A DNA stretch of 64,000 bases from Burkholderiaceae bacterium. GTDB lineage: Bacteria > Pseudomonadota > Gammaproteobacteria > Burkholderiales > Burkholderiaceae_C. Below are positions 27,362-49,285 of the stretch, piece after piece; within the stretch, counting starts at the first letter, position 1; every line of letters begins with the position of its first letter. Below the pieces are notes generated by a model, which had not been told where the DNA came from, did no database searches, and saw only the letters and a program-made list of their open reading frames with translations. A program made the position numbers and the translations under genes. Where the stretch lies: NCBI GenBank assembly GCA_016790175.1, contig JAEUPI010000094.1:20967-84966 (forward strand), written 5' to 3'.

Positions 27362-27408
27362 TCCACGCGCGACACGTCGACCCGGCGCGGCGGCGACACT
27401 GATCGGCC

Positions 27409-29087: not shown

Positions 29088-29369
29088 CTCACACCCTCGC
29101 CCGCTTGCGGGGCGGTCACGGCAGCGGTGGCCTTGCTCCCGCCTTTCGACTCCCAGCCTCAAGAAAGGACCTCTTGACGCTTCATAGCTGGTGTGCTGCA
29201 TGGCAAGGCATTCACCTTGGTTGTCGAGAGCAGCCTCCACTTGCCGCGGGCCCGGGCAGCGGCTACCACCCTCGGGCTACCAGTCTGGGGTATTGAGCGC
29301 TCTCCTCAGAGCCGCCACGATCCATTTCCGAAAGAGCGGATTCCTTCCGCGATGCATGGGGAAACGACG

Positions 29370-32362: not shown

Positions 32363-32442
32363 GGGTTCCTCCGACGTTCGAGCGCAGACGGAAATCGGGC
32401 GTGGCCGCCTGACCGCAGGGCACCCGCCCGGGTGTGGGTCTG

Positions 32443-33753: not shown

Positions 33754-33839
33754 GATCAGTCTCCTTCTATGTGAACGATGGGTGTTGCACGACGGGCCCT
33801 GCGACGCGGCCACCCGCTGTGGGCCAGTGCCGAGCCTGC

Positions 33840-33874
33840 ACGCTATCGGTGAGGCGTTTGTCGAGCGTTTGCCG
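33840..33874 (-). promoter_or_regulatory. Promoter with tandem 11-bp direct repeats (site 1): CGGCAAACGCT-CGACAAACGCC-N7-TAGCGT
   Basis: Repeats at 33853-33874, -10-like hexamer at 33840-33845, 87 nt upstream of the ATG at 33753. The same architecture occurs at 34163-34198 and 60796-60830. Confidence 0.6.
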
Positions 33875-33915
33875 GCGGCGGCACACGCGTGCGCACGTGA
33901 TCGGCCGAGCGCGAT

Positions 33916-34134
33916 TCAGCATGACTCCGGCCTCGTCGAAGGCGGCGCCGCAGGTTGCGGCGCGTCGTCGGCGGCGGGCGGCGGCGCCTCTGCGCTGGCC
34001 TCGCGCAGGAACTCGCCGAGCTGCGCCGGCTCGTCGAACAGCCGCGGCTCGTCCTGGTCCACGCTGCGCACGGCAGCTCGGAACTGGCTCAGGTGCTGCC
34101 ACACCCGCACGAGAAACAGCCGAGGTTCGCTCAT
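33916..34134 (-). CDS. Small cytoplasmic protein (72 aa), LFLVRVW...FRAAVRSVD type
   Basis: RBS ggag + ATG at 34134; no signal peptide; own repeat-type promoter. Colinear weak similarity to the 81-aa ORF at 43340-43585. Confidence 0.6.
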   Translation of the reverse strand: MSEPRLFLVRVWQHLSQFRAAVRSVDQDEPRLFDEPAQLGEFLREASAEAPPPAADDAPQPAAPPSTRPESC

Positions 34135-34162
34135 GGCCCGCTCCGCAATCGCGTTGCGGCGG

Positions 34163-34198
34163 ACCTTAGTGCAGGGGGCGTTTGCTCAGCGTTTGTCG
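34163..34198 (-). promoter_or_regulatory. Promoter with tandem 11-bp direct repeats (site 2): CGACAAACGCT-GAGCAAACGCC-N7/8-CTAAGGT
   Basis: Repeats at 34177-34198; -10-like TAAGGT at 34163-34168; ~30 nt upstream of the ATG at 34134. Lies in the divergent region shared with the hemolysin-III gene. Confidence 0.55.
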
Positions 34199-35406: not shown

Positions 35407-35653
35407 GCTGCGCTCGCTGGTCCAAGCACTTCAGGCCACTGCAGCACCGTCACAGGCTCCGCCACACGTCGACCGGGGGGCGTTTGAAACTACCATGCGC
35501 GAGCGCCTGATGAGCCGCGAAGCCGTGGTCGGCGGCGGCGTCAGCGCGTCTCCGGCGCGCTGCTGAAACGGTTCTCGGGCGGGAACTTCGGCAAGCTGGT
35601 GTTGAGGATCGTCGACGATTGGCGGCCGTTGGTCGCCTTAGCAGGAGCGCGTG

Positions 35654-36712
35654 ATGGACAAGGCGAAGTCGCAGCAGTTCATGCTCAAGGTGGTCGGCGA
35701 CGTCGGCACGGTGCTGGCGGCTGGCGCGGCACTCGTCGGTGACCGCTCGGGTCTGTTCCGCGCGATGGCCGGCGCCGGTGCGTTGAGCGCACAGGTCATC
35801 GCCGAGCGCAGCGACGTGCAGCCGCGCTACGTCGAAGAATGGCTCGCGGTGATGACCGGTGCCGGTTACGTCGAGCACGACGCCGCCCATGACACCTACA
35901 CGCTGCCCGACGAACACGCCCTCTTCCTCACCAACCCGGCGACCGAGTACTACCTCGGTGGGCTGTTCCACGGCTTGCCGGGGTTGATGTCGTCGCTGCC
36001 GCGCGTGGCGCAGGCCTACCAGACCGGCGAAGGCGTGCACTTCGCCGACTTTGGCGCCGAGATGCCACTCGCGCTCGAGGCGATGAACCGGCCGGTCTAC
36101 GAGACCCGCCTGGTACGCGACTGGCTGCCCGCGCTGCCTGCCGCGCTCGAGCGCCTGCGCGCCGGCGGCCGCGCGCTCGATGTCGGCTGCGGCACCGGCG
36201 TCGTGCCGATCACGCTGGCCAAGGCCTTCGAGCGCGCGACGATCGCCGGGCTCGACCTCGATGCTCGCTCGATCGCCATCGCGCGCGAGCGCGCCCGCGA
36301 AGCCGGCGTCGGCGAGCGCGTGCAATTCCTGCAGACTCCCGTCGAGCAGTTGCCGCGCGACGAGCGCTGGGATCTGATCACGACCTTCGACGTCATCCAC
36401 GACCTGCCCGATCCGCACGGCACGCTGGTACTCATCCGCGCCGCGCTGGCCGAAGGCGGCACCTACCTGATGGTCGAACCGAAGGTGGCCGACCGGCTCG
36501 AGGACAACGTCGCCAACCCGTTCGCGCGCATGCTGTACGGCATGAGCTGCCTGCACTGCGTGCCGCAGTCGCTGGCGCAGGGTGGCCCCGGGCTCGGCGC
36601 GTGCTGGGGCGAGTCGCGCGCCCGCGCGCTGGCGCGGGCCGCGGGGTTCGCCGAGTTCCGCCGTCTCGAGGTGCGCAGCCCGGCGATGTCGTTCTATGCG
36701 CTGAGCGGGTGA
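35654..36712 (+). CDS. Class I SAM-dependent methyltransferase with N-terminal winged-helix-like domain
   Basis: RBS aggag + ATG at 35654; motif I ALDVGCGTGV; post-I IAGLDLD; motif II/III region WDLITTFDVIHD. Confidence 0.8.
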   Translation: MDKAKSQQFMLKVVGDVGTVLAAGAALVGDRSGLFRAMAGAGALSAQVIAERSDVQPRYVEEWLAVMTGAGYVEHDAAHDTYTLPDEHALFLTNPATEYYLGGLFHGLPGLMSSLPRVAQAYQTGEGVHFADFGAEMPLALEAMNRPVYETRLVRDWLPALPAALERLRAGGRALDVGCGTGVVPITLAKAFERATIAGLDLDARSIAIARERAREAGVGERVQFLQTPVEQLPRDERWDLITTFDVIHDLPDPHGTLVLIRAALAEGGTYLMVEPKVADRLEDNVANPFARMLYGMSCLHCVPQSLAQGGPGLGACWGESRARALARAAGFAEFRRLEVRSPAMSFYALSG

Positions 36713-37057: not shown

Positions 37058-38602
37058 TCAGCGGCGCAGCTGCAGACGGCACGATTGCACCGCGCGTCGA
37101 ACGTGCCAAGCTTCGCAGCGTCGCACGCCGGACTCGTCGGCGCAGACGAAGTGCAGCGAGCCGCCGCGCGACATGCATCCCACCGCGGCCAGCTCGCGTT
37201 GCACGCCCGCTGGCGACGTCAGCGACTGCGGCGCCGGAGCGGCCACACCGGCCGCCGCGGCAGCGGTGACCGAGCGCTCGCCGGCAACCGGACCGGCCGC
37301 GGTCGGCGAGCGCTGTGGCACGGCCCCCGGCAGCAGATCGACCTTCGACGGTGGCCGCGGATGCGCCGGCTGATTCGCCGCCGAGACGCTGTAGACGCAG
37401 CTTTCGCCGACGCTCGCCATGAACGGCTTGCACGTCGCCATCGCGCTGGCGCTCGGGCAGCCGAGCCCCGGACAGACGCTGCCCACCAGCTTGGCGTCGC
37501 GGAAGGCCTTGACGAAGGCCGCCCTGTTGCCCTGCCAGAACACCTGGTTGCACCAGGTGTAGTTGCCGATCAGCTTCAGCTCGGCCGCCTTGGCCGTGTG
37601 CGCGTTGACCCATCGCGTCACGTGCGAGTAGCCGAGCGTCACGAAGCGCTGGTTGCAGTACAGCGGCACCGACGTGGCAGGCAGCTTCTTGCTGTCGGAT
37701 TGGTAGCGCGCCCAGGCGTTGGCCGCGGCCAGTGCCACCGAGCCGGCGCCGTTGAAGTTGACGCGCTCCTTGGTCAGCTGCGGCAGCACCTGCTGGACCA
37801 CGTGTGCCGACCACTGTGCATCGAGCGCCTTGTCGTACACCTCGACCGCCTTGCCGATCTCGGCATCGGCGTGGCCGCCTGCCTTGGCCTTGGCCTTGAT
37901 CGAATCGACCAGCTTCTGCAGCGCCCACAGGTCCTCCGACTCGATCGCCGTCAGCCCCTCCGGCAGCAGGCGCGGCTTGAAGTACTTCTCGTACACCTGC
38001 TGCGATTTCGGCTTCGGCGGCGGCCCGCTGCTGTCGCAGCCACCGAACAGCTTGCCGGCCGTGGCGCAGTAGCCGTCCTTCGCGACGTTGTAGGCGCCTT
38101 CGCCGAGATCGGCGAAGAACTCCGCCACCGCCTTGCCGCCCGAGTAGACATCCTTGGCGAACTCGATCAGCTCGGCGATCAGCGCGCAGGCGTCGGCGCC
38201 GCCGAGCAGCACCTGCACCACCGCGCAAGTGGCCGCGGCACCGAGGTGATAGGCCACGCCCCAGTAGTCCTTGTCCTTGTAGGCGATGTAGGCATCGACC
38301 GCCTGCCAGAACGACGACGGCACGCCGGCTTCGTTCGACGCCTTCTTGCCGAGCGGCGTGTCGTGGAAGCTGTCGACGCAGACCACCGGATCGGTCTTCC
38401 CCGAGGCGAGGCAATCGAAGAGACCCTTCGACGCCGCGAGATCGGCTGCCGATACCGGCAGCGAATTCGGCGGCGCGGCCTTGTCGATCTTCTGATAGGT
38501 ACTGATGAAGTCGTCGAGCGTGTCGGCGCGTGCCGGGCCGGGTGCGAGCCAGGCCAGCGGCAGCAGCAGGACCAGCGCCACCATCGACCCGAACCGCCGC
38601 AT
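37058..38602 (-). CDS. Exported Cys-rich protein of unknown function (514 aa), last gene of the CsgG-like operon
   Basis: ATG at 38602 with RBS; signal peptide MRRFGSMVALVLLLPLAWLAPGPARA; about 20 Cys; no recognisable domain. Confidence 0.7.
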   Translation of the reverse strand: MRRFGSMVALVLLLPLAWLAPGPARADTLDDFISTYQKIDKAAPPNSLPVSAADLAASKGLFDCLASGKTDPVVCVDSFHDTPLGKKASNEAGVPSSFWQAVDAYIAYKDKDYWGVAYHLGAAATCAVVQVLLGGADACALIAELIEFAKDVYSGGKAVAEFFADLGEGAYNVAKDGYCATAGKLFGGCDSSGPPPKPKSQQVYEKYFKPRLLPEGLTAIESEDLWALQKLVDSIKAKAKAGGHADAEIGKAVEVYDKALDAQWSAHVVQQVLPQLTKERVNFNGAGSVALAAANAWARYQSDSKKLPATSVPLYCNQRFVTLGYSHVTRWVNAHTAKAAELKLIGNYTWCNQVFWQGNRAAFVKAFRDAKLVGSVCPGLGCPSASAMATCKPFMASVGESCVYSVSAANQPAHPRPPSKVDLLPGAVPQRSPTAAGPVAGERSVTAAAAAGVAAPAPQSLTSPAGVQRELAAVGCMSRGGSLHFVCADESGVRRCEAWHVRRAVQSCRLQLRR

Positions 38603-38676
38603 CGTCGTGCCCGGAGGTGCCACGCGGTTCGGTGTGCAACCTCCGGGCTGCGAGCACCGTTCGGAGCGGTCCGTGC

Positions 38677-39333
38677 TCATGGCCGGCTCCCCGCCGGCGT
38701 GGCGCGCTGCCCGGTGGCCGCCGCCAGCTCGCGCTTGATTGCGCCGACCGTGACGCGCCGGCCCGAGGGCGACTCGAGCACGGTGTCGTCGGGCCGTGAC
38801 AGCACCGCGCGCCAGTCGGTGCGGGCGTCGACGCGCAGTACCCGTCCCGCCGCCGGCTGGCCGGGCGCGGTCACGGCGCGGCCGAGCCGGGCTTCGACGC
38901 GCGGCATCACGAAGCGCAACTGCTCGGCCGTCACCGTGCGGCCGGACGGCAGCTGGAACACCTCGGTGCCGGGCCGGCGCAGCGCGTCGTTCAGGTCCTC
39001 GCCGCTGCGCAGCGGCGTGCCGCTGCGCCCCGGCGGCGCGACCAGCCCGGCCGGTGCCGCACGCTCGCCGCCGCGCATGCGGCTCGCGGCGGCGTCCAGG
39101 CGGCGCAGATCGCCGACACGCATGCGACGGTTCGGCGCGAACTCGACGATGTCACTGTCGGCGCGGCCGGCAAGCGAGCGCGCGGTCATGGCCGGCGTGT
39201 AGGGGATGACGGCCCTCGATGCCGCGGTGGCGCGTGCCGGCGCCTCGGCAGCCGCGAGCGCCGGCGCGCCGGGCGCGAGCATCGCCGCGGCCGTAACGGC
39301 CGTCCGGGCCGCGATCAGGAAGCGTGCGTCCAT
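38677..39333 (-). CDS. Exported protein (218 aa) with three short internal repeats
   Basis: Signal peptide MDARFLIAARTAVTAAAMLAPGAPALA. Repeats FAPNRRMRVGDLRRL / QLPSGRTVTAEQLRF / ESPSGRRVTVGAIKREL. Confidence 0.65.
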   Translation of the reverse strand: MDARFLIAARTAVTAAAMLAPGAPALAAAEAPARATAASRAVIPYTPAMTARSLAGRADSDIVEFAPNRRMRVGDLRRLDAAASRMRGGERAAPAGLVAPPGRSGTPLRSGEDLNDALRRPGTEVFQLPSGRTVTAEQLRFVMPRVEARLGRAVTAPGQPAAGRVLRVDARTDWRAVLSRPDDTVLESPSGRRVTVGAIKRELAAATGQRATPAGSRP

Positions 39334-39364
39334 GTCGAGGTCCTCTCTCGAATCCGAATCCTGC

Positions 39365-40609
39365 TCAGCGTGAACCCGAAGGCATGTGCAGCCGACCGGC
39401 GGCTGCCGGCGCGGTGCCGTCCTGCGCCGGGCTGAAGCGCAGGTTGTCGGTGGCTGCGGCCTGCGGCGGCGGCAGCGGCGCACCACCGCACAGTCCCGCG
39501 ACGCTGACCGTCAGCATGAATTCGTTGTTGGCCTTGCTGGCTTCCTTCAGCTGGTTCAGCGGGTCCAGGCGCAGCCGCAGCTTGTTGACGCCCGGCCGCA
39601 GACCGATCGTGTCGACGCGGCTCACCGCGGCCCCGGCGGCGATCGCCGGCGTCTGCGCCACCTGTGCGCCGGGGCTGCCTTCGACCGTCCACTGGCGGTC
39701 CGATGCGGGGCTGCCGGCCGCGCCGAGGTTGCGGACCTCGTGTTCGAACGCGACCTGGCACACGCCGTTGGCGGTCGTGCGCGCGTCGGTGTCGGGCAAT
39801 GCGAGCATGGCGCCCGACGCGGCGCTGTGCTTGCCGGCGACGACGACGCGCGCGCCGCTGGCCAGATCGGGCAGCGCCGCCCCGATCGCAGGCAGGGTCG
39901 CGAGCCGTCCCCTGCCCGGCGCCGTCATGTCCGCACCGGGCTGCGCCGTCGCGTCTGGCGTGCTCTGCCCCGCTGCGCCCGTCTTGCCCCGGGGCAAGGG
40001 CGGCGTCTGGACCTGCTGCGCCGCCATCCGGCCGGACGGTGACACCGGCTTATTCATCGCTGCCAGCTTGTTCGCCTCGGCTCCGGTCGTGGCCCTCGAC
40101 AGCAGCGGGCGATTCTTCTCGGCGGGTACCGAGAATCCCGACCAATCGGTGAGGTTCTTGAATTCGAGCCGCACGCACGGGTCGTCTTGGACGACGGGGT
40201 CACCCGTGCACTTGAACTCCGAGCGCAAGGTGCCCGAATGTTTCTTGCCCGGATCGGTCAACTTCACCAGCTCTTCGAGCCGGCTCGCGCCCGAATGCCA
40301 GGTAACCCGAGCCTCGGCCCACAGCGCCGACTCGCCTGTATTGGGCGCGGCCACGCCTGCCTTGACGTGGTCGACCCAGATCTTGCAGATGCCGTCGAAC
40401 CAGTAGCTGCGCGTGCGGGCGGCGGCATCGTCGGTCACCTGCTTCAGCTTGAAGCTGCCGCAGTCGGCCATGTGCTTGACGAGGTGCGTCTTGTCGACGG
40501 TCGTGGTCGTGCTCGAAAAGCCGAGCGCCGACACCGCCTGCGGCAGGCACAGCGCCGCCGGCAGCAGCGCCGCGCCGGTAACGCGCCGCGACAGAAGAGC
40601 GATCGTCAT
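39365..40609 (-). CDS. Exported protein (414 aa): Cys-containing N-domain, Pro/Ala linker, CARDB-like C-terminal beta-sandwich
   Basis: ATGA overlap with the upstream gene; signal peptide. C-terminal ...CQVAFEHEVRNLGAAGSPAS...GAAVSRVDTIGLRPGVNKLRLRLDPLNQLKEASKANNEF resembles CARDB. Confidence 0.65.
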   Translation of the reverse strand: MTIALLSRRVTGAALLPAALCLPQAVSALGFSSTTTTVDKTHLVKHMADCGSFKLKQVTDDAAARTRSYWFDGICKIWVDHVKAGVAAPNTGESALWAEARVTWHSGASRLEELVKLTDPGKKHSGTLRSEFKCTGDPVVQDDPCVRLEFKNLTDWSGFSVPAEKNRPLLSRATTGAEANKLAAMNKPVSPSGRMAAQQVQTPPLPRGKTGAAGQSTPDATAQPGADMTAPGRGRLATLPAIGAALPDLASGARVVVAGKHSAASGAMLALPDTDARTTANGVCQVAFEHEVRNLGAAGSPASDRQWTVEGSPGAQVAQTPAIAAGAAVSRVDTIGLRPGVNKLRLRLDPLNQLKEASKANNEFMLTVSVAGLCGGAPLPPPQAAATDNLRFSPAQDGTAPAAAGRLHMPSGSR

Positions 40610-41238
40610 GGCAACACCTTCTTGGCGTTCAGCTCGACCTGAGTGGCATATGCCGCGAGCTGCTGGCTCAGAGCCCGGGCCTCGGCGGCGGTGGCCGCCG
40701 CCGTCTTCTGGAACTCCTGCAGCGAGAAGCCGATCTTGGCGTTGCCGGCGCCTGCGTTGGGCAGCCTGACGCCGCCGGCGGAACCTCCGCCCAGACCCAG
40801 AACCGGCAGACTCGTGCTCTGGTAGCTCTGCAGGCAGTGTTTCAGCAGCTTGTCGGAACACTGCGCCACCGTGTCGTTGGCGGTGCAGCCGGCCTTGGTC
40901 TGATCCTGCACGCTGTACGACTTGTTCGCGCATTCCTGCGCCATGCCCGGAACGGCTTTGACCATCGACTCGAAGGCCTTCGCGTCGCCGGAGAACTTGT
41001 TGAAGTCTTTCGCGAGCGTGTCGAGCCCAAGAGCCGGAATGACCAGGCGCGGCACGTTGCCGGGCGACAGGCGCAAGTCGCCTTTCAGCGGGGCCGCCAC
41101 GGCCTGGCGTGCCGGCCCGGCAGGCGCAGGCGTGGGCGTGTTGCGTGCGTTGTCGGCCGCGCTCGCGGCGGCCGAGGCCAACGACGTCACGATGGCGGCG
41201 GCCCGCAGTGCCGCGCAGAAGGGACTGGTGTGCTGCAT
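40606..41238 (-). CDS. Exported protein of unknown function (210 aa), four-Cys helical region
   Basis: Signal peptide MQHTSPFCAALRAAAIVTSLASAAASA; ...AQECANKSY...KAGCTANDTVAQCSDKLLKHC... Confidence 0.6.
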   Translation of the reverse strand: MQHTSPFCAALRAAAIVTSLASAAASAADNARNTPTPAPAGPARQAVAAPLKGDLRLSPGNVPRLVIPALGLDTLAKDFNKFSGDAKAFESMVKAVPGMAQECANKSYSVQDQTKAGCTANDTVAQCSDKLLKHCLQSYQSTSLPVLGLGGGSAGGVRLPNAGAGNAKIGFSLQEFQKTAAATAAEARALSQQLAAYATQVELNAKKVLP

Positions 41239-41250
41239 CGCGTCCTCCGT

Positions 41251-41997
41251 TCAGGGCTCGAACCGTCTGGCCAGCTGCAGCACCGCCTCGTCGATCACCG
41301 CGCGCAGCGCCGAGTCGATGCCTTCGCTATGGCGCTGCTGCGCCTGGACCTCGGGCGTGTAGGGCGACGACTTGCCGCGCTGCGCGAGGATCGTGCCGAT
41401 CAGGCTGCTCGTGCCGCTGACGCCGGCCTCGTCGGAGCGGATCGACCTGCGTACGCTGACCGCATCGACGATGTCGCCGTTGCCGGCGTCGACGATGCGC
41501 ACGTCGATCGCGATCGTGTCGCGGTTGCTGCTGCCGCCGAGCTGCGCACCGGCAACGCCGACGCCGGCCGAGCGCTGCCGCTCACCGGCGTTGGTCTCCG
41601 ACAGCGTGCCCTCGAAGACATACTGCGCGCCGCGCAGCGTCCGCGCCGCCGCCTTGCCCGACGCCAGGCCGCTTAGCTGCAGCTGCTTCTCGCGCATCAC
41701 GCCGTCGTTCAAGCGCGCGCGCTCGACGACGCGGAACTGTCCGCTCTGCACGAGCGCGGTCTTGAACATCTCGGTCGCCGATCGGGCGCTGACACCCGGC
41801 AGCTCGGTGCGGACCTCGTAGAGGGTCACCGCGACGCGCTCGCCGGCCTTGCGCGGCAGCTTCTTCAGCGCCTGTGCGCCGACGGTCGCATCGGCGCGCG
41901 CCGGCTGCGCGGCCAGCGCACCCATTGTCTGACTGCAGGCGGCGAGCACGACGCCGATGGCGGCGGCGAGCGCCAGGCGGAGGCAGGGATGCTTCAT
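41251..41997 (-). CDS. CsgG-family outer-membrane lipoprotein (curli-type secretion channel fold)
   Basis: Lipobox VLAAC; ERVAVTLYEV...SATEMFKTALVQSGQFRVVERARLNDGVMREKQL; GAQYVFEGTLSE...; DTIAIDVRIVDAGNGDIVDAVSV. Colinear with the CsgG family. Confidence 0.8.
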   Translation of the reverse strand: MKHPCLRLALAAAIGVVLAACSQTMGALAAQPARADATVGAQALKKLPRKAGERVAVTLYEVRTELPGVSARSATEMFKTALVQSGQFRVVERARLNDGVMREKQLQLSGLASGKAAARTLRGAQYVFEGTLSETNAGERQRSAGVGVAGAQLGGSSNRDTIAIDVRIVDAGNGDIVDAVSVRRSIRSDEAGVSGTSSLIGTILAQRGKSSPYTPEVQAQQRHSEGIDSALRAVIDEAVLQLARRFEP

Positions 41998-42026
41998 CGT
42001 GGTGACTCCTCGTGGACGACAGTGCC

Positions 42027-42734
42027 TCAGTGCGTGCGCCAGGGCCAGGGCTGACCGAAGACCGATCGGCATGCGGCGTCGAACAGCGCCGGCGCGGCCG
42101 CATCGGCGACGCCCGCGGCCAGCAGCGCCGCGCCGATCAGGCCGAGCACGGCGCCGGCCAGGCGCGTCGTCAGATCCTGCACCGCATGCATCGCGCGCCG
42201 CGCGAGGTCGCCGCGCCGGTCGGCGAAGCCGATCAGCAGCCCCAGCGCGTTCAGCACAAACCACAAGCCGAGCGGAATCAGCGCGAACGCCGGCCGCGCG
42301 AGCAGCGCGTCGTGCAACTGCGCCGGCGTGACGCCGAACACCCACGCCAGCACCAGCGCGAACCCGCACAGCCCGAGCCAGGCGAGCGCGACCCCGAACG
42401 GCACCGCCGCCGCGCCCTCGTAGATGACGAAGCGCGCCTCGCGCCGCATGAAGCTGCGCGCGAAGAACATCAAGCGTCGTTCGGCAACCGCCAGCACGCC
42501 GACGGCGACCGCGATCGCAGCAAACCCGGCCATGCCGAGCGCCAGCCACGCCGGGCGCGCCAGGTGAAACCCGGTCAGCGCGACGGCCGTCGCCGCCAGC
42601 GGCGCGACCAGGTACAGCGCGACGATGCGGCGTTCGACCCGCGCCGCTTCGGCGGCCGACACCGGATACCGGCCGCCGCTGAAGGGCAACGGCGGATCGA
42701 CCGGGCCGGCGTCGGCGAGCGCGTCGCGGTTCAT
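42027..42734 (-). CDS. Polytopic inner-membrane protein of unknown function (~235 aa)
   Basis: Five to six hydrophobic helices. ATG at 42734 preferred over the GTG at 42743. Confidence 0.6.
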   Translation of the reverse strand: MNRDALADAGPVDPPLPFSGGRYPVSAAEAARVERRIVALYLVAPLAATAVALTGFHLARPAWLALGMAGFAAIAVAVGVLAVAERRLMFFARSFMRREARFVIYEGAAAVPFGVALAWLGLCGFALVLAWVFGVTPAQLHDALLARPAFALIPLGLWFVLNALGLLIGFADRRGDLARRAMHAVQDLTTRLAGAVLGLIGAALLAAGVADAAAPALFDAACRSVFGQPWPWRTH

Positions 42735-42750
42735 CGTGGGCACCGGTTGC

Positions 42751-43311
42751 TCAGTACTTGACGTCGTCGCGTTTGACGAAGGCGCCGTCCCTGCCGCTCA
42801 ACGTCACCGACGACATGCCCTTGTCGGTCATGACCGACACCGACCAGAACAGCTGTGGCTTGCCGAGCGCCTGGTTGCCGACCACCAGGCCCAGGCCGAG
42901 GTTCTTCGCCGACTTGTCGAGCTTCAGCCCGGCCTTGGCGGCGGCCGCGACCGCCTGGTCGCTGTCGACGAAATCGCTGCCGATCGCGTCGACCGAGGTG
43001 TTGCGCACATCGGCCTCGACCTCGACCTTGCCGCCGTCGCGCACGGTGACGATGGCGCTCTTCTTCGCGCCCGGCGAATAGAAGGTCACGAGCCAGCTCG
43101 CCGCGCGGCCGTCGCCGCCGCCGCGCAGCGTCGACACGTGGGTCGCCACCGCGTCGCCGCGCCACTTGGTGGCGGCGGGTGCCGCCTGCGCGAGCGCTGC
43201 CCTGGCGGTCTGCGCCAGCGCGGCGGTGGCGGTCAGTGCCAGTGCGATGCCGGCCAGGCCGACCAGCGTGGCCGCGGCGCCGAAGCGTCGATGGATCGTT
43301 GCGAGGGTCAT
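42751..43311 (-). CDS. Exported protein (186 aa), PepSY-like pattern (weak)
   Basis: Signal peptide ...LVGLAGIALALTATAALAQT; ...IGSDFVDSDQAVAAAAKAGL... helix typical of PepSY-type domains. Confidence 0.55.
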   Translation of the reverse strand: MTLATIHRRFGAAATLVGLAGIALALTATAALAQTARAALAQAAPAATKWRGDAVATHVSTLRGGGDGRAASWLVTFYSPGAKKSAIVTVRDGGKVEVEADVRNTSVDAIGSDFVDSDQAVAAAAKAGLKLDKSAKNLGLGLVVGNQALGKPQLFWSVSVMTDKGMSSVTLSGRDGAFVKRDDVKY

Positions 43312-43339
43312 GGCGATGGCTCCTGAACGTGAACAGTTC

Positions 43340-43585
43340 CTAGCGGAGGTCCCGCGGCGGTCGCGGCGAGGGCGCGGCCAGATCGACCAGCCAGCGGATC
43401 AGTTGATGCAGGCTGGCGACTTCGCGCGGCCGGTCGTGACCTTCGATCACGGCCTGCCAGCGCTCGCCGCGCCGCTGCAGCTCGATGTGGAACAGTGCGG
43501 CCTCGCGGCCAGCAGGCGCGGGCATGACGCCGCCATCGCGCCGCGCGAGTTCTCCGTCGTTCATGGCTTGGCCCCCGCGGTGCAC
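43340..43585 (-). CDS. Small cytoplasmic protein (81 aa; possibly 68 aa from 43546), LFHIELQ...WQAVIEGHD type
   Basis: No signal peptide. Colinear with the 72-aa ORF at 33916-34134 (LF-x-[VI]-x-[VL]-x6-[FW]-x-A-x-[VI]-x3-D ... L..[FW]L). Confidence 0.5.
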   Translation of the reverse strand: MHRGGQAMNDGELARRDGGVMPAPAGREAALFHIELQRRGERWQAVIEGHDRPREVASLHQLIRWLVDLAAPSPRPPRDLR

Positions 43586-44295
43586 TGCTGAAGCGCAATG
43601 GCGGGCGCGCCGAGCACCGTGCCGAGCATGAGCGACGCTTTCGGTGCCAGCGGCGCCTGCAGCGTGTGCACACCACCGGGCGGTGTCGGCGCCGCGGTGT
43701 GCGGCTGCACCGACCAGACGATGCGCAACGCCGCCGGCAGCGGCGCGCTGCCGGTATGGGTCGCCGTAAACTCGTACTCGCGCTTCATCGTCGCGAAACT
43801 GCCGCTGCCCACCGCCTTCATGCCCTTGGCCGCGAGGCCGCAGGCGAGCGTCACGTCGGGCAGCGCCTTCGGGACCCTGCCTGCATCCGCCGTCGCACGC
43901 GCTGCGGGCATCGCCTTCGTTGCCGTGCCGTCGCGCCCCGGCGACGCGGTCGAGTCCGGCGCGACGGCCCGCAGGCCGGTGGCCGACGGCGGCGACATCC
44001 TGCGTGCGCCACCGGCGCTGCCTTGCTGCTCATAGGTCTTCATGCACTGCTCGATGTACTGCTGCACCTTCTGCTTGAAGGCGTCGGTGCCGGCGCCGGG
44101 CGAGGTCGGCGGGTATTTCGTGGCCGCCTGGTACGAGCACATCGTGTACGGCGAAGTCGGCGGCTTGACGCAGCCGCCGAGCGCGCCGGGCACCTGTCCC
44201 GGCGGGCAGGCCGCGTACACGGCGGCCCCGGTGCCGGCGAGCACGGCGGCCTGCGCGCGCGGTGCGACCGGTCGGAACGCGAATCGCCTTGGCAT
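43561..44295 (-). CDS. Exported Pro/Cys-containing protein of unknown function (244 aa), first gene after the SARP regulator
   Basis: RBS agagga + ATG at 44295; N-terminal MPRRFAFRPVAPRAQAAVLAGTGAAVYAA leader; 5 Cys. Confidence 0.6.
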   Translation of the reverse strand: MPRRFAFRPVAPRAQAAVLAGTGAAVYAACPPGQVPGALGGCVKPPTSPYTMCSYQAATKYPPTSPGAGTDAFKQKVQQYIEQCMKTYEQQGSAGGARRMSPPSATGLRAVAPDSTASPGRDGTATKAMPAARATADAGRVPKALPDVTLACGLAAKGMKAVGSGSFATMKREYEFTATHTGSAPLPAALRIVWSVQPHTAAPTPPGGVHTLQAPLAPKASLMLGTVLGAPAIALQQCTAGAKP

Positions 44296-44400
44296 GGACG
44301 GGTCCTCTGTCGTTGCCGGGTCGCTTCGGTCATCCGAAGCCTGGACGCGACGATAGGGCGCGCGGCGTTACCGCCGCGTCACAACCGCCCGATGCCGGCG

Positions 44401-47118
44401 TTACGGCGCGGCCTGCGCACGCAGCGCGGCCGCCTCGTCGTGGCGGCCGGCGGCCTGCAGGCGATCGATCAGGAGCTGCTCGAAGGCGCGCCGCAGCGGC
44501 AGACTGCCGATTTCGCGTGCTTCGGCGTGCGCCTGCATCAGGTCGCGAAGGCCGGCCGGCTCGTCGCCGCCGCGAAACGCCAGCTCGGCGCGGACCGAGA
44601 GCGACATCGCGTGGCCTCGCCGATAGCCGGCCGCCGCGGTGGCGACGAGCGAAACTTCGCACAGCTCGCGCGCACGCGCCAGATCGCCACGCTCGATCGC
44701 ACACTGGCACAGCCAGTAGGCGCAGTTGGCGTGCTTGAGCGCCGAGACGCCGCGATAGCGCTCCAGTGCCGTTGACAGCGCCGCCTCGGCCTCGCCGAGC
44801 AGCCCCGCCGCCTTCGACGCGGCGCCGAATTCGAGCAGCAGCGCGGCCTCGTCGACCGGATCGATGCGATCGCGCAGCGCGTCGATGGCGTCCCGCGCGG
44901 TGTGACGCGCCTCGGCGTAGCGGCCGTGCTCGAAGTGGTTCACGGCCTGCTTGACCGCCAGCTCGACGCGCCGGTGCGACTCGTCGGCGCCTTCGGCCAG
45001 CGCGGCAGCCATCGCGTCGATGGCTGCGGCCCGTCGCGTGTCGTCGTCGAGATTGCGCAGCAGTTCGACGCGTGCGCTGTGGATGTCGAAGGCGGTCGCG
45101 AGGTCGACGCCGTCGGCCAGCGCCAGGTCGTACTGCGCCAGTGCTTCCCCTTGCGCAAACACGCGTGCGGCCGCCTGCGCCGCCTGCACGCGGTGCGCCG
45201 CCGCCTCGGCCCCGCGCTGGCCGGCCTCGAGATGCGCGGCAATGTCGGCCGCCGGCGCACCGGCCCGGCGCAGGGCATCGGCGAGGCGGCGATGCAGCAG
45301 CTTGCGCCGCTCGCCGCCCAGCGCCTCATCGAGCGACCGTCGCACCAGGTCGTGCGTGAAGCGCAGGCCGCTGGCCGAGGCCGCGATCAGTTCCGCCTGC
45401 ATCGCACGATCGGTGGCGTCGGCGAGTGCCTGCTCGGGCAGCCCGGTGCAGTCCACCAGCCAGTCCAGCTCGAAGCCGTCGCCCGCCAGGCTGGCCGCCT
45501 CGAGCATCCGGCGCACCGGCTCGCCCAGCCGGTCGATGCGGCGCAAGACCGCGTCGCGCACGCTCGGCGACAGCGGTAGCTCGCGATAGTCCTCGGTCTG
45601 CTCGTCGAACGGCGTGCCCCAGGTGTCTTTCTCGTGCCACAACACGCCGGCTGCGAAGAGGTCGCGCAGTGATTCCAGGATGAACAGCGGGTTGCCTGCC
45701 GTGGCGGCATGCAGCCGGCGCGAGAATGCTGCCGCGGCGCGGCTGCCGGACATCGCGCGCACCAGCGCCAGCACCTGGGTCTCGCTCAGCGGCGACAGCG
45801 TCAGGCGCAGCAGCTCGCCGTCGCGCGCGATCGCCTCGAGCGCCTGCTGCGCGGCCGCGTCGCGCGGCAGTTCGGTGCTGCGTGCGGTGGCCAGCAGCCG
45901 CGCCCGTGGCCGGTGCCGAACCAGATGCGCCATCAGCTCGGCGGTCGTCGCGTCGTACCACTGGATGTCGTCGAAAACGATCGTGCCGGCGCCGGCGGCG
46001 GTCAGCAGCGCCGCGCTCAGCCCTTCGAGAAAGCGGGCCCGGGCCTCGACCAGCGGCCCAGCGGCCGGCGTTCCATCGGCATCGGACAAGGACGGCAGCA
46101 GCCGCGCCACTTCGCGGCGCCAGGCAGGGTCGAGCAGGTCGAACCAGCGGCTGTCGTCCTGGTAGGCGCTCATCAGCGCGTCGGCCACGGGATACAGCGG
46201 CGTCTCCCGCGACACCTCGCGGCCCTTGATGACGAGCAGCGCGGCGCCACGGGCGTGCACGAACTCCAGCGCCAGCCGGCTCTTGCCGACGCCGGCGTCG
46301 CCGTCGATCAGCACCAGCGCCTGCCTCGCTTCGGCGATCTGCTGCCATGCGGCCTCGCGGCCGATCAGCGGCGACTTGAGTTCGACCGATGCAGCGCCGG
46401 CATTTGCTGCCGGGCCGGCGGCCGATGCGCTGCGGACACGCTGCCAGAGCGCCACCGTCTCGCGATCGGGCTGGGCGTCGAGTTCGCTCGCGAGCCGGCT
46501 GCGCAGGCGTTCGAACAGTTCGAGCGCCGCGGCAGGGTCGCCGACCTGATGCGACAGGCGCATCGCCTCGCGGGTCAGCGCCTCGTCGGCCGGCACCGCG
46601 GCCAGTCCGTCGCGCAGCAGATCGAGCGCGCCTTGCGGGTCGCCGGCGGCTTCGCGCGCCGCCGCCGCGCGCCGGATGGCGTCTTGCCGCGACTGCTGCA
46701 TCGCGTCTCGCTCGGCGCGCAGCCAATCCATGAAGCCCTCGCCACCGCGCAGTTCGAAACCCTCCAGCAACTCGGCCGGCACGCCGGCAGGAAACTGCGG
46801 TGAGCCGGCGCCGCCGCGCCAGCCGGGCACGTCGAGCACGAAGCCCTCGCGCAGGCGCAACGTTTCTGCGCCGGCTTCGATCCAGCCGGCCACCGGCGTC
46901 TGCTGCAGGCGGTGGATTTCCTGGCGCAGGTTGCGGCGCGCGGCATCGTCGGGCTTACCGCTCCAGAGCAGCGCGGCCAACACGCTGCGCGGCGTCGGCC
47001 CGGCGAGCGCGAGGTAGGCCAGCAGCGCGACCGACTTGCGGGTGGGCAGGGCGACCTCGGCTCCCGCGACGGTGACACGCGGGCGGCCCAGCAACGCCAG
47101 CTCGAGACGCCGATCCAT
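44401..47118 (-). CDS. SARP-type regulator: OmpR-like winged helix + BTAD + P-loop NTPase + TPR (905 aa)
   Basis: Start MDRRLELALLGRPRVTVAGAEVALPTRKSVALLAYLAL...LWSG...RRNLRQEIHRLQQ; BTAD helices; Walker A LIDGDAGVGKSRLA; TPR-like C-terminus. The ORF-track 1294-aa ORF over-extends antisense into ubiU. Confidence 0.85.
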   Translation of the reverse strand: MDRRLELALLGRPRVTVAGAEVALPTRKSVALLAYLALAGPTPRSVLAALLWSGKPDDAARRNLRQEIHRLQQTPVAGWIEAGAETLRLREGFVLDVPGWRGGAGSPQFPAGVPAELLEGFELRGGEGFMDWLRAERDAMQQSRQDAIRRAAAAREAAGDPQGALDLLRDGLAAVPADEALTREAMRLSHQVGDPAAALELFERLRSRLASELDAQPDRETVALWQRVRSASAAGPAANAGAASVELKSPLIGREAAWQQIAEARQALVLIDGDAGVGKSRLALEFVHARGAALLVIKGREVSRETPLYPVADALMSAYQDDSRWFDLLDPAWRREVARLLPSLSDADGTPAAGPLVEARARFLEGLSAALLTAAGAGTIVFDDIQWYDATTAELMAHLVRHRPRARLLATARSTELPRDAAAQQALEAIARDGELLRLTLSPLSETQVLALVRAMSGSRAAAAFSRRLHAATAGNPLFILESLRDLFAAGVLWHEKDTWGTPFDEQTEDYRELPLSPSVRDAVLRRIDRLGEPVRRMLEAASLAGDGFELDWLVDCTGLPEQALADATDRAMQAELIAASASGLRFTHDLVRRSLDEALGGERRKLLHRRLADALRRAGAPAADIAAHLEAGQRGAEAAAHRVQAAQAAARVFAQGEALAQYDLALADGVDLATAFDIHSARVELLRNLDDDTRRAAAIDAMAAALAEGADESHRRVELAVKQAVNHFEHGRYAEARHTARDAIDALRDRIDPVDEAALLLEFGAASKAAGLLGEAEAALSTALERYRGVSALKHANCAYWLCQCAIERGDLARARELCEVSLVATAAAGYRRGHAMSLSVRAELAFRGGDEPAGLRDLMQAHAEAREIGSLPLRRAFEQLLIDRLQAAGRHDEAAALRAQAAP

Positions 47119-47298: not shown

Positions 47299-48318
47299 AT
47301 GCCCGCCGCCGAGATCCGCGCCCCCGAACTGGTCTGCCCCGCCGGCTCGCTGCGGGCGCTGCAGCTGGCGGTCGACGCCGGTGCCGACGCGGTCTACGTC
47401 GGCCTGAAGAACGCCACCAACGCGCGCAACTTCGCCGGGCTGAACTTCGATGACGCGCAGCTGGCACGGGGCGTGGCCTATGCGCATGCGCGCGGCCGCA
47501 AGGTCTTCATGGCGCTGAACTCGTTCGCGCGCGCCGGCGCCGAGGCGCTGTGGTATCGAGCCGTCGACGCCGCGGCGAGGGCCGGCGCCGACGCGCTGAT
47601 CGTCGCCGACACCGCGGTGATGGCCTATGCGCGCGAGCGCCACCCCGCGTTGCGGCTGCACCTGTCGGTGCAGGCCTCGGCGACCAGCTACGAGGCGATC
47701 GACTTCTATCGCCGCCACTACGGCATCGAGCGCGCGGTGCTGCCGCGCGTGCTGACGCTGTCGCAGGTCGGCCACGTGCTGCGAAATACCACGATCGAGA
47801 TCGAGGTGTTCGCCTTCGGCAGCCTGTGCGTGATGGTCGAGGGACGCTGCACGCTGTCGTCGTATGCCACCGGCCAGTCGCCCAACAACGCGGGGGTGTG
47901 CTCGCCGCCGTCGGCCGTGCGCTGGACCGACACGCCGCAGGGCGTGGAGTCGCGCCTGAACGGCCTGCTGATCGACCGCTACGCGCCCAACGAGCCGCGT
48001 GGCTACCCCACGCTGTGCAAGGGCCGCTTCGAGGTCGACGGCCAGCGCGGTTATGCGCTGGAAGAGCCGACCAGCCTGAATTCGATGAGCATCCTGCCCG
48101 AGCTGATGCGCCTGGGCGTGCGCGGCCTGAAGATCGAGGGCCGCCAGCGCAGCCCCGCCTACGTCGAGCAGGTCACGCGCGTGTGGCGCCAGGCGATCGA
48201 CAGCGCGCACGCGCAGATCGAGCGCTTCGAGCCGCGCACCGAGTGGACCGCGGCGCTCGACCGCCTGGCTGAAGGCCAGCAGCACACGCTGGGCGCGTAT
48301 GACCGGCCCTGGCGCTGA
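47299..48318 (+). CDS. ubiU: UbiU, U32-peptidase-family Fe-S protein of O2-independent ubiquinone hydroxylation
   Basis: PELVCPAGSL..L..AVDAGADAVYVGL...; Cys cluster FGSLCVMVEGRCTLSSY...GVCSPP...TLCKGRF; followed by ubiV and ubiT. Confidence 0.85.
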   Translation: MPAAEIRAPELVCPAGSLRALQLAVDAGADAVYVGLKNATNARNFAGLNFDDAQLARGVAYAHARGRKVFMALNSFARAGAEALWYRAVDAAARAGADALIVADTAVMAYARERHPALRLHLSVQASATSYEAIDFYRRHYGIERAVLPRVLTLSQVGHVLRNTTIEIEVFAFGSLCVMVEGRCTLSSYATGQSPNNAGVCSPPSAVRWTDTPQGVESRLNGLLIDRYAPNEPRGYPTLCKGRFEVDGQRGYALEEPTSLNSMSILPELMRLGVRGLKIEGRQRSPAYVEQVTRVWRQAIDSAHAQIERFEPRTEWTAALDRLAEGQQHTLGAYDRPWR

Positions 48319-48322
48319 CGTC

Positions 48323-49285
48323 GTGAAGGAAGAACGCGCCTTCGCGCTGACCGTCGGCCCGGTGCTCGGCTACTGGTCGCGCCGCGCGCTGCACGACTTC
48401 TATGCCGACGTGGCCGACTCGTGCGTCGAGACGGTCGTGATCGGCGAGGTCGTCTGCGCGCGCCGGCGCGAGATGAAGCTCGACGACTGGCTGGCGCTGG
48501 GCGCCGAGCTGCGCAGCGCCGGCAAGGAGGTGGTGCTCGGCACCCAGGTCCTGATCGAATCGGAGTCCGACCTGCGTTTGCTGCGCCGCCAGGCCGGGCA
48601 GCGCGAGTTCCTGGTCGAGGCCGGCGACGCATCGGCGCTCAATGTGCTGGCCGGTGCCGGCGTGCCGTTCGTGCTGGGGCCCCACATCAACATCTACAGC
48701 GCCGCGGCGCTGCGCGAGCACCGGCGGCTCGGCGCGGTGCGCTGGGTCGCTCCGGCCGAGCTGCCGCTGGCCAGTCTGTCGCGGATCAACCCGCCAGCGC
48801 CCGATGACGGCGTCGCCGCGCACTTGCCGGACGACGGCGCCTGCTCGCCGGTGGCCACCGAAGTGCTCGCCTTCGGGCGGCTGCCGCTGGCGTTCTCGGC
48901 GCGCTGCTTCACGGCGCGGCACCACAAGCTGAGCAAGGACTCGTGCGACTTCCGCTGCGCCGACGATGCCGACGGGCTGCTGCTGTCGACCACCGACGGC
49001 ACGCCGTTCCTGGCGCTCAACGGGATCCAGACGCTGTCGGCGGCGCGTCATTGCCTCATCGGCGAGCGCGCGGCGCTGCAGGCGGCCGGCGTGACGCGGC
49101 TGCGCCTGTCGCCGTCGGCGGCGGGTTTCGCCGAGGTACTCGCCCTGTTCGACGCGGTGATGAACCACGACGCGCCGGCCGACATGGCGCGGCGCCGGCT
49201 CGAGGCGATGGCGTGGCCGGGCGGTCTTGCCAACGGATACGCCGGCGGCGGCGCGGGGCTGCAGTGGACGGGCGCGAGCGCATGA
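48323..49285 (+). CDS. ubiV: UbiV, U32-family partner of UbiU
   Basis: LTVGPVLGYWS...; Cys motif ARCFTARHHKLSKDSCDFRC. GTG at 48323 preferred; the ORF-track ATG at 48299 overlaps the ubiU end. Confidence 0.8.
   Translation: MKEERAFALTVGPVLGYWSRRALHDFYADVADSCVETVVIGEVVCARRREMKLDDWLALGAELRSAGKEVVLGTQVLIESESDLRLLRRQAGQREFLVEAGDASALNVLAGAGVPFVLGPHINIYSAAALREHRRLGAVRWVAPAELPLASLSRINPPAPDDGVAAHLPDDGACSPVATEVLAFGRLPLAFSARCFTARHHKLSKDSCDFRCADDADGLLLSTTDGTPFLALNGIQTLSAARHCLIGERAALQAAGVTRLRLSPSAAGFAEVLALFDAVMNHDAPADMARRRLEAMAWPGGLANGYAGGGAGLQWTGASA

Follow-up and report, generated by a model that had tools for sequence, protein, structure and literature searches.

The DNA analysed here, called the window throughout, is a stretch of 64,000 nucleotides (nt) with a G+C content of about 70%, taken from contig JAEUPI010000094.1 of a Burkholderiaceae bacterium metagenome-assembled genome (MAG; GCA_016790175.1). 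On its minus strand the gene for a large SARP-like regulator, REG, is followed by nine tightly packed genes, G1 to G9, the fifth of which encodes a lipoprotein of the CsgG/HfaB family. The spacer between REG and G1 contains a conserved array of direct repeats that is the candidate binding site of REG. The gene set is discussed below as a putative signal-inducible envelope cluster, with G5 as a possible export conduit or anchor. Its elements are as follows, with the type of evidence in brackets (aa, amino acids; AF2, AlphaFold2).

44401-47118, minus strand: REG, 905-aa SARP-like STAND regulator (Pfam)
44350-44404, minus strand: candidate REG operator-promoter (repeat architecture, conservation)
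44323-44340, minus strand: hairpin GCTTCGG-ATGA-CCGAAGC (sequence)
43561-44295, minus strand: G1, 244 aa, predicted exported, 6 Cys, no family (translation, Pfam, NCBIfam)
43340-43564, minus strand: G2, 74-81 aa, without signal peptide (ATG start; alternative GTG at 43585)
42751-43311, minus strand: G3, 186 aa, predicted exported, family F20 (translation, relatives)
42027-42743, minus strand: G4, 238 aa, predicted polytopic inner-membrane protein (about five hydrophobic segments in the sequence)
41251-41997, minus strand: G5, 248 aa, CsgG/HfaB-family outer-membrane lipoprotein (Pfam CsgG, lipobox)
40606-41238, minus strand: G6, 210 aa, predicted exported, 5 Cys (translation, relatives)
39365-40609, minus strand: G7, 414 aa, predicted exported, CARDB-like C-terminus (CARDB score below cut-off, homologues)
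38677-39333, minus strand: G8, 218 aa, predicted exported, Arg/Ala-rich, three motif copies (translation, shuffle test)
37058-38602, minus strand: G9, 514 aa (or 540 aa), predicted exported, all-helical, 16 Cys (translation, AF2)

As many as 109 open reading frames (ORFs) that are 60 aa or longer overlap the 34-50 kb interval of the window. Because an ORF list alone is unreliable in DNA of this G+C content, the G+C content of third codon positions (GC3) was used to call genes. From 44295 down to 37058, GC3 remains at 0.8-0.98 in one minus-strand frame at a time without a break, and the frame switches exactly at the gene borders. Translations and start contexts agree with this gene model, and most of the genes are preceded by AGGAG-like ribosome-binding sites. 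An earlier note on this DNA, prepared from the sequence alone, had described nine packed minus-strand genes behind a regulator, and this arrangement is borne out by GC3, translations and start sites. The intergenic distances from G1 to G9 are -4, 28, 7, 29, 12, -4, 31, and 74 nt. The ATGA overlap that had been reported at 40606-40609 is present and joins G6 to G7, and a second one joins G1 to G2 at 43561-43564. A third, between G8 and G9 at 38677-38680, exists only if G9 starts 26 codons earlier. The start of G9 is ambiguous: the ATG at 38680, which corresponds to the 540-aa NCBI call and follows a Shine-Dalgarno-like GGGGAG, puts 26 further residues in front of the signal peptide, whereas the ATG at 38602 matches the starts of homologues. 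Downstream of G9 lies a convergent methyltransferase gene (35651-36712), and upstream of REG a divergent pair of U32-peptidase genes, so that the block is bounded on both sides.

The regulator REG and the REG-G1 spacer

In Pfam searches, REG contains a BTAD domain at residues 130-229 (PF03704; 49.7 bits, cut-off 22.1) and an AAA_16 domain (60.2 bits, cut-off 32.6) and carries the Walker A motif GDAGVGKS; matches to NACHT (22.2 bits), TPR_19 (19.7 bits) and TPR_16 fall below the respective cut-offs. The best match of residues 2-99 in the PDB is the winged helix-turn-helix of EmbR (residues 8-107), which aligns in register at a weak E-value of 0.038. No match to Pfam Trans_reg_C was obtained at E<=0.1, and full-length REG had no PDB match at E<=0.001. 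By these domain assignments, REG is a regulator of SARP-like BTAD plus STAND NTPase architecture whose winged helix is weakly evidenced. The earlier description of a 905-aa protein with BTAD, Walker A and TPR parts thus stands, with BTAD and AAA_16 above cut-off and the TPR and winged helix weak. The large SARP/AfsR-type STAND regulators, such as AfsR and EmbR-like proteins, share with REG the layout of BTAD, AAA_16 and TPR-like regions, the N-terminus that aligns weakly with EmbR, and the predicted target, which consists of 11-nt phased direct repeats beside a -10-like hexamer. The classical members of the SARP family are regulators of antibiotic biosynthesis in actinobacteria, whereas REG is found in a Burkholderiaceae MAG and is predicted to control envelope genes.

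Related loci, identified by L-numbers, were compared with the window by tblastn; 80 were fetched via an alignment of G5 relatives and three by exact protein look-up. REG homologues with 53-64% identity head related clusters in L001, L004, L005, L092, L095, and L106. When the 105-nt REG-G1 spacer was aligned with its counterpart in L004, a Piscinibacter MAG, GTAACG and GTGACG words were found to be kept. On the minus strand of the window, these repeats read GTAACG (44404-44399), GTGACG (44382-44377), and GTAACG (44371-44366), with a spacing of 22 and 11 nt, and the -10-like hexamer TATCGT (44355-44350) lies 10 nt past the last repeat. The DNA downstream of all REG-type genes then yielded the full architecture: GTAACGCC, 22 nt further on TTGTGACG, after another 11 nt GTAACG, and after exactly 10 nt TAnnnT. 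Its core can be written as TTGTGACG-N5-GTAACG-N10-TAnnnT, the third repeat being located 22 nt upstream. This triple GTRACG repeat, overlooked in the earlier note, is the notable DNA feature of the spacer. The 17-base core occurs once in the 64-kb window, in this spacer, even if three mismatches are allowed, and none of 100 shuffled sequences matched.

The same architecture, with the same spacing, recurs in L001 (two copies), L004, L005 (three copies), L006, L031, and L037, and the repeats without a TAnnnT hexamer at that spacing are present in L013 and L043. Exact copies of the core follow REG in L001, L004, and L031. Core copies also precede internal sub-operons in L001 and L006, including one sub-operon that ends in the CsgG-like gene, and L005 has near-exact copies at equivalent sub-operon positions. 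In silico, the GTRACG repeats with their 22- and 11-nt spacing and the fixed 10 nt to TAnnnT are kept at no fewer than 10 sites in relatives. A metagenome scan with the motif only gave 30 matches, six of which fall within homologous clusters. These are arranged as REG-motif-G1-G2 (L106), REG-motif (L095), motif-G7-like gene (L092), and, in L090, L103, and L112, the motif followed after about 550-630 nt by G5-G6. No homologue of any window protein accompanies the other 24 matches, most of which lie in DNA of much lower G+C content, and they were treated as chance occurrences.

SARPs such as DnrI and AfsR bind 11-nt phased direct repeats that overlap the -35 region and abut the -10 element. Together with the conservation of 11-nt phased repeats, this known binding mode provides good in silico support for control of G1-G9 by REG. 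That REG controls these genes, and the CsgG-like gene in relatives, is therefore considered quite probable from the sequence comparisons. The repeat word GTRACG is specific to REG's own clade. Other clades have different words with the same 11-nt phasing, namely two copies of CGTTAG in L007 and L022 and two of GGTAAG in L042, and a single CGTTAG lies downstream of the REG-type gene in L009. Such clade-specific words are expected if each REG clade has its own operator.

The spacer also contains the hairpin listed above, GCTTCGG-ATGA-CCGAAGC at 44340-44323 of the minus strand, which the earlier note had singled out at 44324-44339. The hairpin is real, and its stem is in fact 7 bp long. It is ordinary, however, and not conserved in L004, the closest related locus; the window contains 47 perfect hairpins with a 6-bp stem and a 4-nt loop and 16 with 7-bp stems. 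A role as terminator or attenuator was rejected, because no T-run follows, such hairpins are common in GC-rich DNA, and L004 lacks it. Provided that the -10 element is assigned correctly, the transcript would begin approximately at the hairpin. A terminator search of the region returned two terminator-like sites, which is below the shuffled expectation, and neither is in the REG-G1 spacer; the only one on the minus strand is at 42282-42267.

G5 and its partner proteins

G5 is identical to the hypothetical protein JNJ42_06665 of a Burkholderiaceae MAG. Residues 67-240 match Pfam CsgG (PF03783) with 73.5 bits (cut-off 20.8), and the N-terminus MKHPCLRLALAAAIGVVLAAC-SQ, judged by eye, contains the lipobox LAAC with Ser at position +2. 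A profile of 18 G5 relatives retrieved CsgG from the PDB with an E-value of 2e-12. The scores against the NCBIfam equivalogs are far below their thresholds, with 24.2 versus 505 bits for CsgG, 14.9 versus 300 for HfaB, and 23.6 versus 110 for LpoB. Pfam LpoB does exceed its cut-off, in a match confined to residues 69-137. The same profile of relatives shows an 11-residue deletion exactly at the constriction loop of Escherichia coli CsgG, DETGQFKPYPAS, which carries Y51, N55, and F56. Between the two conserved anchor motifs that flank this loop, 57 of 60 scorable subfamily members have 11 residues, compared with 22 in E. coli. The short-loop signature of the subfamily reads Y-E-F-R-S-x-x-x-E-I-P-A-R.

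The AF2 model of G5 (confidence score pLDDT 67) has long strands at residues 126-148, 151-170, and 176-194. In Foldseek comparisons its best matches are the membrane form of CsgG (4UV3, 6L7A), with an E-value of 1e-12 and a template-modelling (TM) score of 0.52. The TM score is 0.34-0.40 for pre-pore CsgG, and the hairpin-less PelC reaches a TMq of 0.27-0.40. Matches to PelC, HpaA, and GNA1162 are significant but far poorer, and the 50 Foldseek matches listed include no chain with the name LpoB. The hairpin segments of G5 are of about the length found in CsgG, partly alternating, Gly/Ala-rich and without aromatic residues, and the two hairpin regions together carry about 70 more residues than PelC/LpoB-type proteins.

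On the basis of its sequence, G5 is thus best regarded as a genuine CsgG/HfaB-family lipoprotein that belongs to a subfamily with a truncated constriction loop, and its model resembles, with moderate confidence, the membrane form of CsgG. The earlier assignment of a CsgG-family lipoprotein to 41251-41997 is confirmed by the Pfam match, the lipobox and the profile comparison with CsgG in the PDB. The further designation as a CsgG-type pore is sustained as to family and membrane-form resemblance, whereas pore formation itself can only be inferred and the constriction loop is truncated. Because 11 constriction-loop residues are missing, G5 cannot work exactly like CsgG. The mode of transport would differ from that of CsgG; G5 could form a wider channel or have no channel function.

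All ten proteins were searched against Pfam, NCBIfam and PADLOC, signal peptides were judged by eye, and AF2 models of G5 and G9 were compared by Foldseek. Signal-peptide-like N-termini were found in G1, G3, G6, G7, G8, and G9 and not in G2, and G5 is the only cluster protein with a clear lipobox. The earlier count of eight exported or membrane products among nine is therefore retained, as all but G2 have a signal, a lipobox or transmembrane segments. Likewise, the two partners that had been described as Cys-rich, of 514 and 210 aa, contain 16 (G9) and 5 (G6) Cys residues, and G7 and G1 have 7 and 6, respectively. G1-G4, G6, and G8 belong to no Pfam or NCBIfam family, and none of the cluster proteins belongs to a PADLOC defence family. 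Pfam and NCBIfam scans of the nine products (E<=0.1) contained no curlin repeat, CsgE, CsgF, ATPase or pilin, in agreement with the earlier reading. Overall, searches of Pfam, NCBIfam, PADLOC, PDB sequences and Foldseek placed no partner in a characterised machinery.

G1 homologues were found only in L004 and L106, in both cases directly after REG and the operator. Its C-terminal half was considered as a CARDB-like relative of the G7 C-terminus, a relationship that is unproven (hhalign probability 0.3, E 0.22). G2 has homologues in L004, L052, and L106, and an 88-aa look-alike follows REG in L001. The proposal that G2 is related to the leader gene of a secretin locus elsewhere in the window had to be abandoned for lack of statistical support (BLASTP E 43); the two share only a loose motif, a hydrophobic strand-like run followed by an L-x-x-x-L helix. 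Small proteins of 70-90 aa without signal peptides recur directly after BTAD-STAND regulators, at 1232-1498 in L001, at 8369-8611 in L004, in L007 and L022, and at 43340-43564 in the window. The G2-type members end in ...PRGLR or ...PRDLR, and those of L007 and L022 begin with M(D/E)TFIVRIYRR. These proteins, which have no Pfam match, may represent a regulator-associated small-protein family.

G3 occurs in two copies in L001. Its interpretation as a tandem PepSY protein was rejected, as PepSY appeared in one of eight members at an E-value of 0.28 and no meaningful PDB or Pfam match was obtained. G4 homologues adjoin G3 homologues in L001, L004, and L092. G6 follows the CsgG gene in the window and in L001, L005, L006, L090, L103, and L112 and is absent from L004. 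G7 consists of an N-terminal Cys-containing domain, a linker rich in Pro, Ala, Gly and Thr, and a C-terminal CARDB-like immunoglobulin (Ig) domain. The CARDB-like C-terminus that had been suggested for this protein scores 21.0 bits, just under the cut-off of 22.7, so that the match of G7 itself is borderline; it is supported by the homologues, as 8 of the 14 listed carry PF07705. The G7 C-terminus also has weak PDB matches (2KL6, 3IDU, 2L0D; E 0.03-0.4), one of them to a chain named 'cell surface protein'. G8 is the partner for which three repeats had been noted. It contains three copies of P-[SN]-[GR]-R-x-[VR]-[TV], about 60 residues apart, and in two of three pairwise comparisons the score is above that of every one of 300 shuffles.

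G8 and G9 lie side by side at about 17 CsgG loci, and L084 and L085 have the pair as well. The AF2 model of G9 is all-helical, with a pLDDT mostly above 90 for residues 200-400, and has a hydrophobic helical stretch at residues of about 113-150. Foldseek detected no fold match in the PDB (best E 1.9). A Mut7-C match (E 0.074, 13.6 bits, far below cut-off) was dismissed as noise, and the sole match of the G9 profile to PDB sequences, over 40 residues, is spurious. Among 1.84 billion proteins, 134 representatives of the G9 family were retrieved at E<=1e-30, and the relatives are mostly about 870 aa long, with a C-terminal CARDB-like domain.

Related loci and genomic context

The partners of the CsgG-like gene recur in L001, L004, L005, L006, and metagenome contigs, so that the neighbourhood pointed out in the earlier note is found again in other genomes. 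In several genomes, seven to eight of the nine partners are found with REG at 35-83% identity. L004 has REG and all partners except G6. Most partners accompany REG in L001, L005, and L006, where the order is shuffled and some genes are duplicated, and subsets of the window set are present in L011, L013, L031, L037, and L052. In the relatives the same genes are spread over two or three transcription units. None of the genes that flank the cluster in the window was found beside related clusters, and these different flanks around the REG-G9 block indicate that it was inherited or moved as a unit. All carriers of the full cluster that were found are uncultured. A translationally coupled pair of G8-like and G9-like genes with a 4-nt overlap is encoded at 9333-12547 in L084 and at 9285-12637 in L085, in both cases with no gene of the CsgG family within 10 kb, and in L085 it is the last element of an extended series of hypothetical genes. 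In these two loci, the G9 relatives have about 850-880 aa and a CARDB C-terminal domain. The existence of the pair without a nearby CsgG gene implies that the cluster is modular and not strictly built around G5. The earlier view of an operon built around a CsgG channel, therefore, does not hold in this form, as G6 is absent from L004 and G8-G9 occurs without CsgG.

For a broader comparison, all ORFs around 84 CsgG-subfamily loci were clustered, and Pfam was run on the family representatives. The subfamily is distributed over Burkholderiales, Lysobacteraceae, Nevskiales and delta-proteobacterial lineages, and its cultured carriers include Roseateles puraquae CCUG 52769, Ideonella lacteola DXS29W and Pelomonas sp. 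V22 (L035, L056, L061). A gene for a Ser/Thr kinase with transmembrane and TPR regions lies within 9 kb in 32 of the 84 loci, 27 of which also contain a gene for a PF07638 extracytoplasmic function (ECF) sigma factor, and a REG-type regulator is found near the CsgG-like gene in 16-18 of the 84. Either the ECF sigma/kinase pair or a REG-type regulator is present in 47 of 84 loci, and in 35 of the 51 loci whose flanks extend for 6 kb or more in both directions (L001 and L005 included). The ECF sigma/kinase pair occupies the place held by REG in the window cluster. The kinase architecture is as described for the ECF43 partner PknS (PMC13147305). Pairs of an ECF43 sigma factor and a Hanks kinase (EcfK/PknS, EcfP/PknT) thus have their likeness near the CsgG subfamily elsewhere but not in the window cluster. 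ECF/kinase pairs control defence responses in Xanthomonas and Vibrio, and ECF43/kinase pairs control anti-predator systems (PMC13147305). L002, L019, and L023 (twice in L023) have an ECF-like promoter word, GATGTCCG-N17-CCTCGTRAT, ahead of the CsgG-like gene, at the point where this gene diverges from the ECF sigma/kinase pair. The position of the word suggests direct ECF control of the CsgG subfamily.

The partner genes vary among the 84 loci and include F2, F6, F7, F10, F12, DUF3617, OmpA-like and DUF3558-like families as well as the G8-G9 pair; nearly all partner families have signal-peptide-like N-termini. The commonest is F2, which follows the CsgG-like gene in ECF sigma/kinase loci (L030, L044-L060 and others). 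F2 proteins are exported, about 450 aa long and without a Pfam family, and their profile matches domain D of cyclodextrin glycosyltransferases (CGTases), an Ig domain of IPT/TIG type (E 6e-8). The F6 profile had no match in the PDB. A common cargo domain was looked for and not found, as all-against-all hhalign of 25 families related only F2 to F35 and F27 to F36. The claim that the gene set matches no known system has accordingly to be divided: the partners are indeed unplaced, but the arrangement is not unique and belongs to a widespread subfamily wired to REG-type or ECF/kinase regulators. In the papers retrieved, by a search that was not aimed specifically at SARP regulators, neither a link between CsgG-family genes and ECF sigma/kinase pairs or REG-type regulators nor a description of the gene cluster was found.

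Elsewhere in the window, a second envelope locus on the minus strand (30545-34185) encodes a TPR-containing secretin (Pfam Secretin, 64.9 bits), a protein of about 490 aa without a Pfam family (32443-33915), and the small leader ORF mentioned above (33916-34134). On the plus strand, a 935-aa Ser/Thr protein kinase (23529-26336; Pkinase, 159 bits) is encoded beside a winged-helix transposase-like ORF (22834-23328). No link between this kinase and the cluster is obvious, although the CsgG subfamily is accompanied by kinases of similar size elsewhere. The two adjacent U32-family peptidase genes divergent from REG (47299-49285, plus strand; 215 and 29 bits) presumably resemble ubiU/ubiV of O2-independent ubiquinone synthesis. 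Genes for DUF2249, NnrS and Tll0287-like proteins (27035-29963, plus strand) and for a XylR-type sigma-54 activator with XylR_N, V4R and Sigma54_activat domains (50758-52485, minus strand) seem to be housekeeping or regulatory genes that have no connection with the cluster.

Interpretation of the cluster

The cluster is read here as a signal-inducible set of envelope genes in which G5 serves as export conduit or anchor, a reading to which we assign a probability of about 0.5. In the proposed mechanism, REG would sense a cytoplasmic cue through its NTPase/TPR part, bind the three GTRACG repeats that overlap the -35 region in the REG-G1 spacer, and switch on G1-G9 as a single, translationally coupled transcript. 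All products except G2 would then leave the cytoplasm by Sec-dependent export. G5 would be lipidated, sent to the outer membrane and oligomerise into a CsgG-like barrel, which might export or anchor the Cys-rich and Ig-domain proteins G1, G7, and G8-G9, and the periplasmic G3, the inner-membrane protein G4 and G6 could be accessory factors. That the nine genes form one regulated unit is indicated by the conserved direct-repeat operator-promoter in the spacer and its recurrence in homologous clusters, and an operon is further supported by the tight spacing, the ATGA overlaps and the occurrence of the REG-G9 block in differing flanks. The assignment of channel and cargo is more tentative and falls somewhat short of an even chance. 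It draws on the signal-peptide-like N-termini of the partners, on the Ig-like domains (CARDB in G7 and G9 relatives, IPT/TIG in F2) and on the precedent of HfaB.

Curli CsgG (csgDEFG/csgBAC of E. coli) and G5 are outer-membrane lipoproteins that appear to share one fold, and G5 seems to retain both hairpin regions, at similar length. In contrast to curli CsgG, the G5 subfamily lacks the 11 constriction-loop residues with the Tyr/Asn/Phe gate of about 0.9 nm, the cluster has no match to CsgA/B, CsgE or CsgF, and the regulator is of SARP-STAND type instead of CsgD. The best functional analogy is Caulobacter HfaB with HfaA/HfaD(/HfaE), a CsgG-family lipoprotein that is co-encoded with non-curli proteins; HfaA and HfaD require HfaB to be targeted to the surface (PMC6707917). 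By analogy, the mode of action in the window cluster would resemble this HfaB-dependent surface display more closely than the secretion of curli amyloid. However, no partner was placed with HfaA or HfaD by Pfam or NCBIfam, no holdfast polysaccharide genes are nearby, and the regulation differs. A third comparison is offered by the Acinetobacter 'curli-like' cluster, in which a CsgG/HfaB-family protein and two small lipoproteins are encoded under H-NS repression (bioRxiv 10.1101/2021.05.19.444899). This three-gene cluster likewise is a widely distributed, little-studied CsgG-family module without curlin, but the window has nine genes, with partners that lack a Pfam family. In comparison with these systems, the cluster is best classed as a CsgG/HfaB-type envelope module in a form not described in the libraries and papers searched.

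Several observations weigh against a conduit or anchor under REG control. The cluster is known from sequence and models alone, and the full set is present in no cultured strain. The G5 model is of moderate confidence (pLDDT 67), and the loop that defines CsgG gating is truncated. Disulfide-rich cargo or folded Ig domains would not pass a CsgG-type constriction of 0.9 nm. The G8-G9 pair also exists away from any CsgG gene (L084, L085), and the mostly unrelated partner families recovered by hhalign fit poorly with a common cargo signal. Finally, a sigma-70 consensus scan of the region yielded no -35/-10 match, although this is expected for an activator-dependent promoter.

Alternatively, G5 would not be a conduit but, like PelC or LpoB, an outer-membrane lipoprotein ring with a role in structure or signalling, and the cluster would be an envelope-stress or defence regulon that acts in the periplasm or outer membrane. 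This explanation is rather unlikely but a serious contender, as it would accommodate the truncated loop, the Pfam LpoB match over residues 69-137, the significant Foldseek matches to PelC, HpaA and GNA1162, and the heterogeneous partners. It would also suit the consistent wiring of the subfamily to an ECF sigma factor and a transmembrane/TPR Hanks kinase or to a STAND regulator, given the defence responses governed by ECF/kinase pairs in Xanthomonas and Vibrio (PMC13147305). A ring of this type does not account, however, for the roughly 70 extra hairpin-region residues of G5, and the model is closer to membrane-form CsgG (TM 0.52) than to PelC (TMq 0.27-0.40). In addition, the NCBIfam LpoB score reaches 23.6 of the 110 bits required, and no pel genes or genes for penicillin-binding proteins are adjacent. 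Delivery of toxins is improbable. An inducible antagonism module with G9 and its relatives as effectors that pass through G5, and with small neighbours as chaperones or immunity proteins, would fit the hydrophobic helical stretch of G9 (about 113-150) and its lack of a known fold, the variable, 'polymorphic' partners around a conserved channel gene, and the control of anti-predator systems by related ECF43/kinase pairs (PMC13147305). Yet searches of Pfam, NCBIfam and PADLOC yielded no family of toxin, immunity or defence proteins, the N-terminal domain of G9 is conserved and not polymorphic, and the presence of CARDB and IPT domains suggests adhesion or a structure at the surface.

A divergent curli (type VIII) system or holdfast anchor, in which an amyloid subunit has become unrecognisable, is largely refuted and very improbable. 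Membership of G5 in the CsgG/HfaB family and the three internal repeats of G8, the candidate subunit, speak for it. Against these stand the lack of Curlin_rpt, CsgE and CsgF matches at E<=0.1, NCBIfam scores of 24 versus 505 bits for CsgG and 14.9 versus 300 for HfaB, and the missing constriction loop for the transport of unfolded curlin; moreover, G8 is rich in Arg and Ala and not in Gln, Asn and Gly, and its repeats lie about 60 residues apart and not in tandem. Even the variable gene content, with G6 missing from L004, G1 rare, and the order shuffled in L001 and L005, hardly makes it credible that unrelated hypothetical genes were juxtaposed beside a regulator by chance. This is contradicted by synteny and by the operator: seven to eight of nine partners recur with REG at 35-83% identity in different flanks, the shared operator precedes sub-operons, and two or three ATGA couplings link the genes.

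If the export or anchoring role of G5 is extended to its relatives, the short-loop CsgG subfamily might constitute a separate, signal-gated type VIII-like branch with a wide lumen or different gating, whose cargo would be surface proteins with Ig domains in a folded or disulfide-bonded state and not unfolded amyloid subunits. A dedicated sensor would govern expression, either SARP-STAND with GTRACG or an ECF43-like factor with a Hanks kinase depending on the lineage, and the cargo would be lineage-specific. This generalisation is doubtful, though conceivable. CsgG-family channels are understood almost wholly through curli and, to a lesser extent, through holdfast anchoring. What is new here is a widespread and unstudied CsgG subfamily that has lost the constriction loop and is coupled to signalling modules and to exported proteins without an assigned fold. 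CsgG is used as a sequencing nanopore, and if G5 is a channel, it would represent a natural wide-pore CsgG variant and widen the range of type VIII-like cargo. The cluster also provides a testable case of SARP-type STAND regulation outside the Actinobacteria, with a defined candidate operator.

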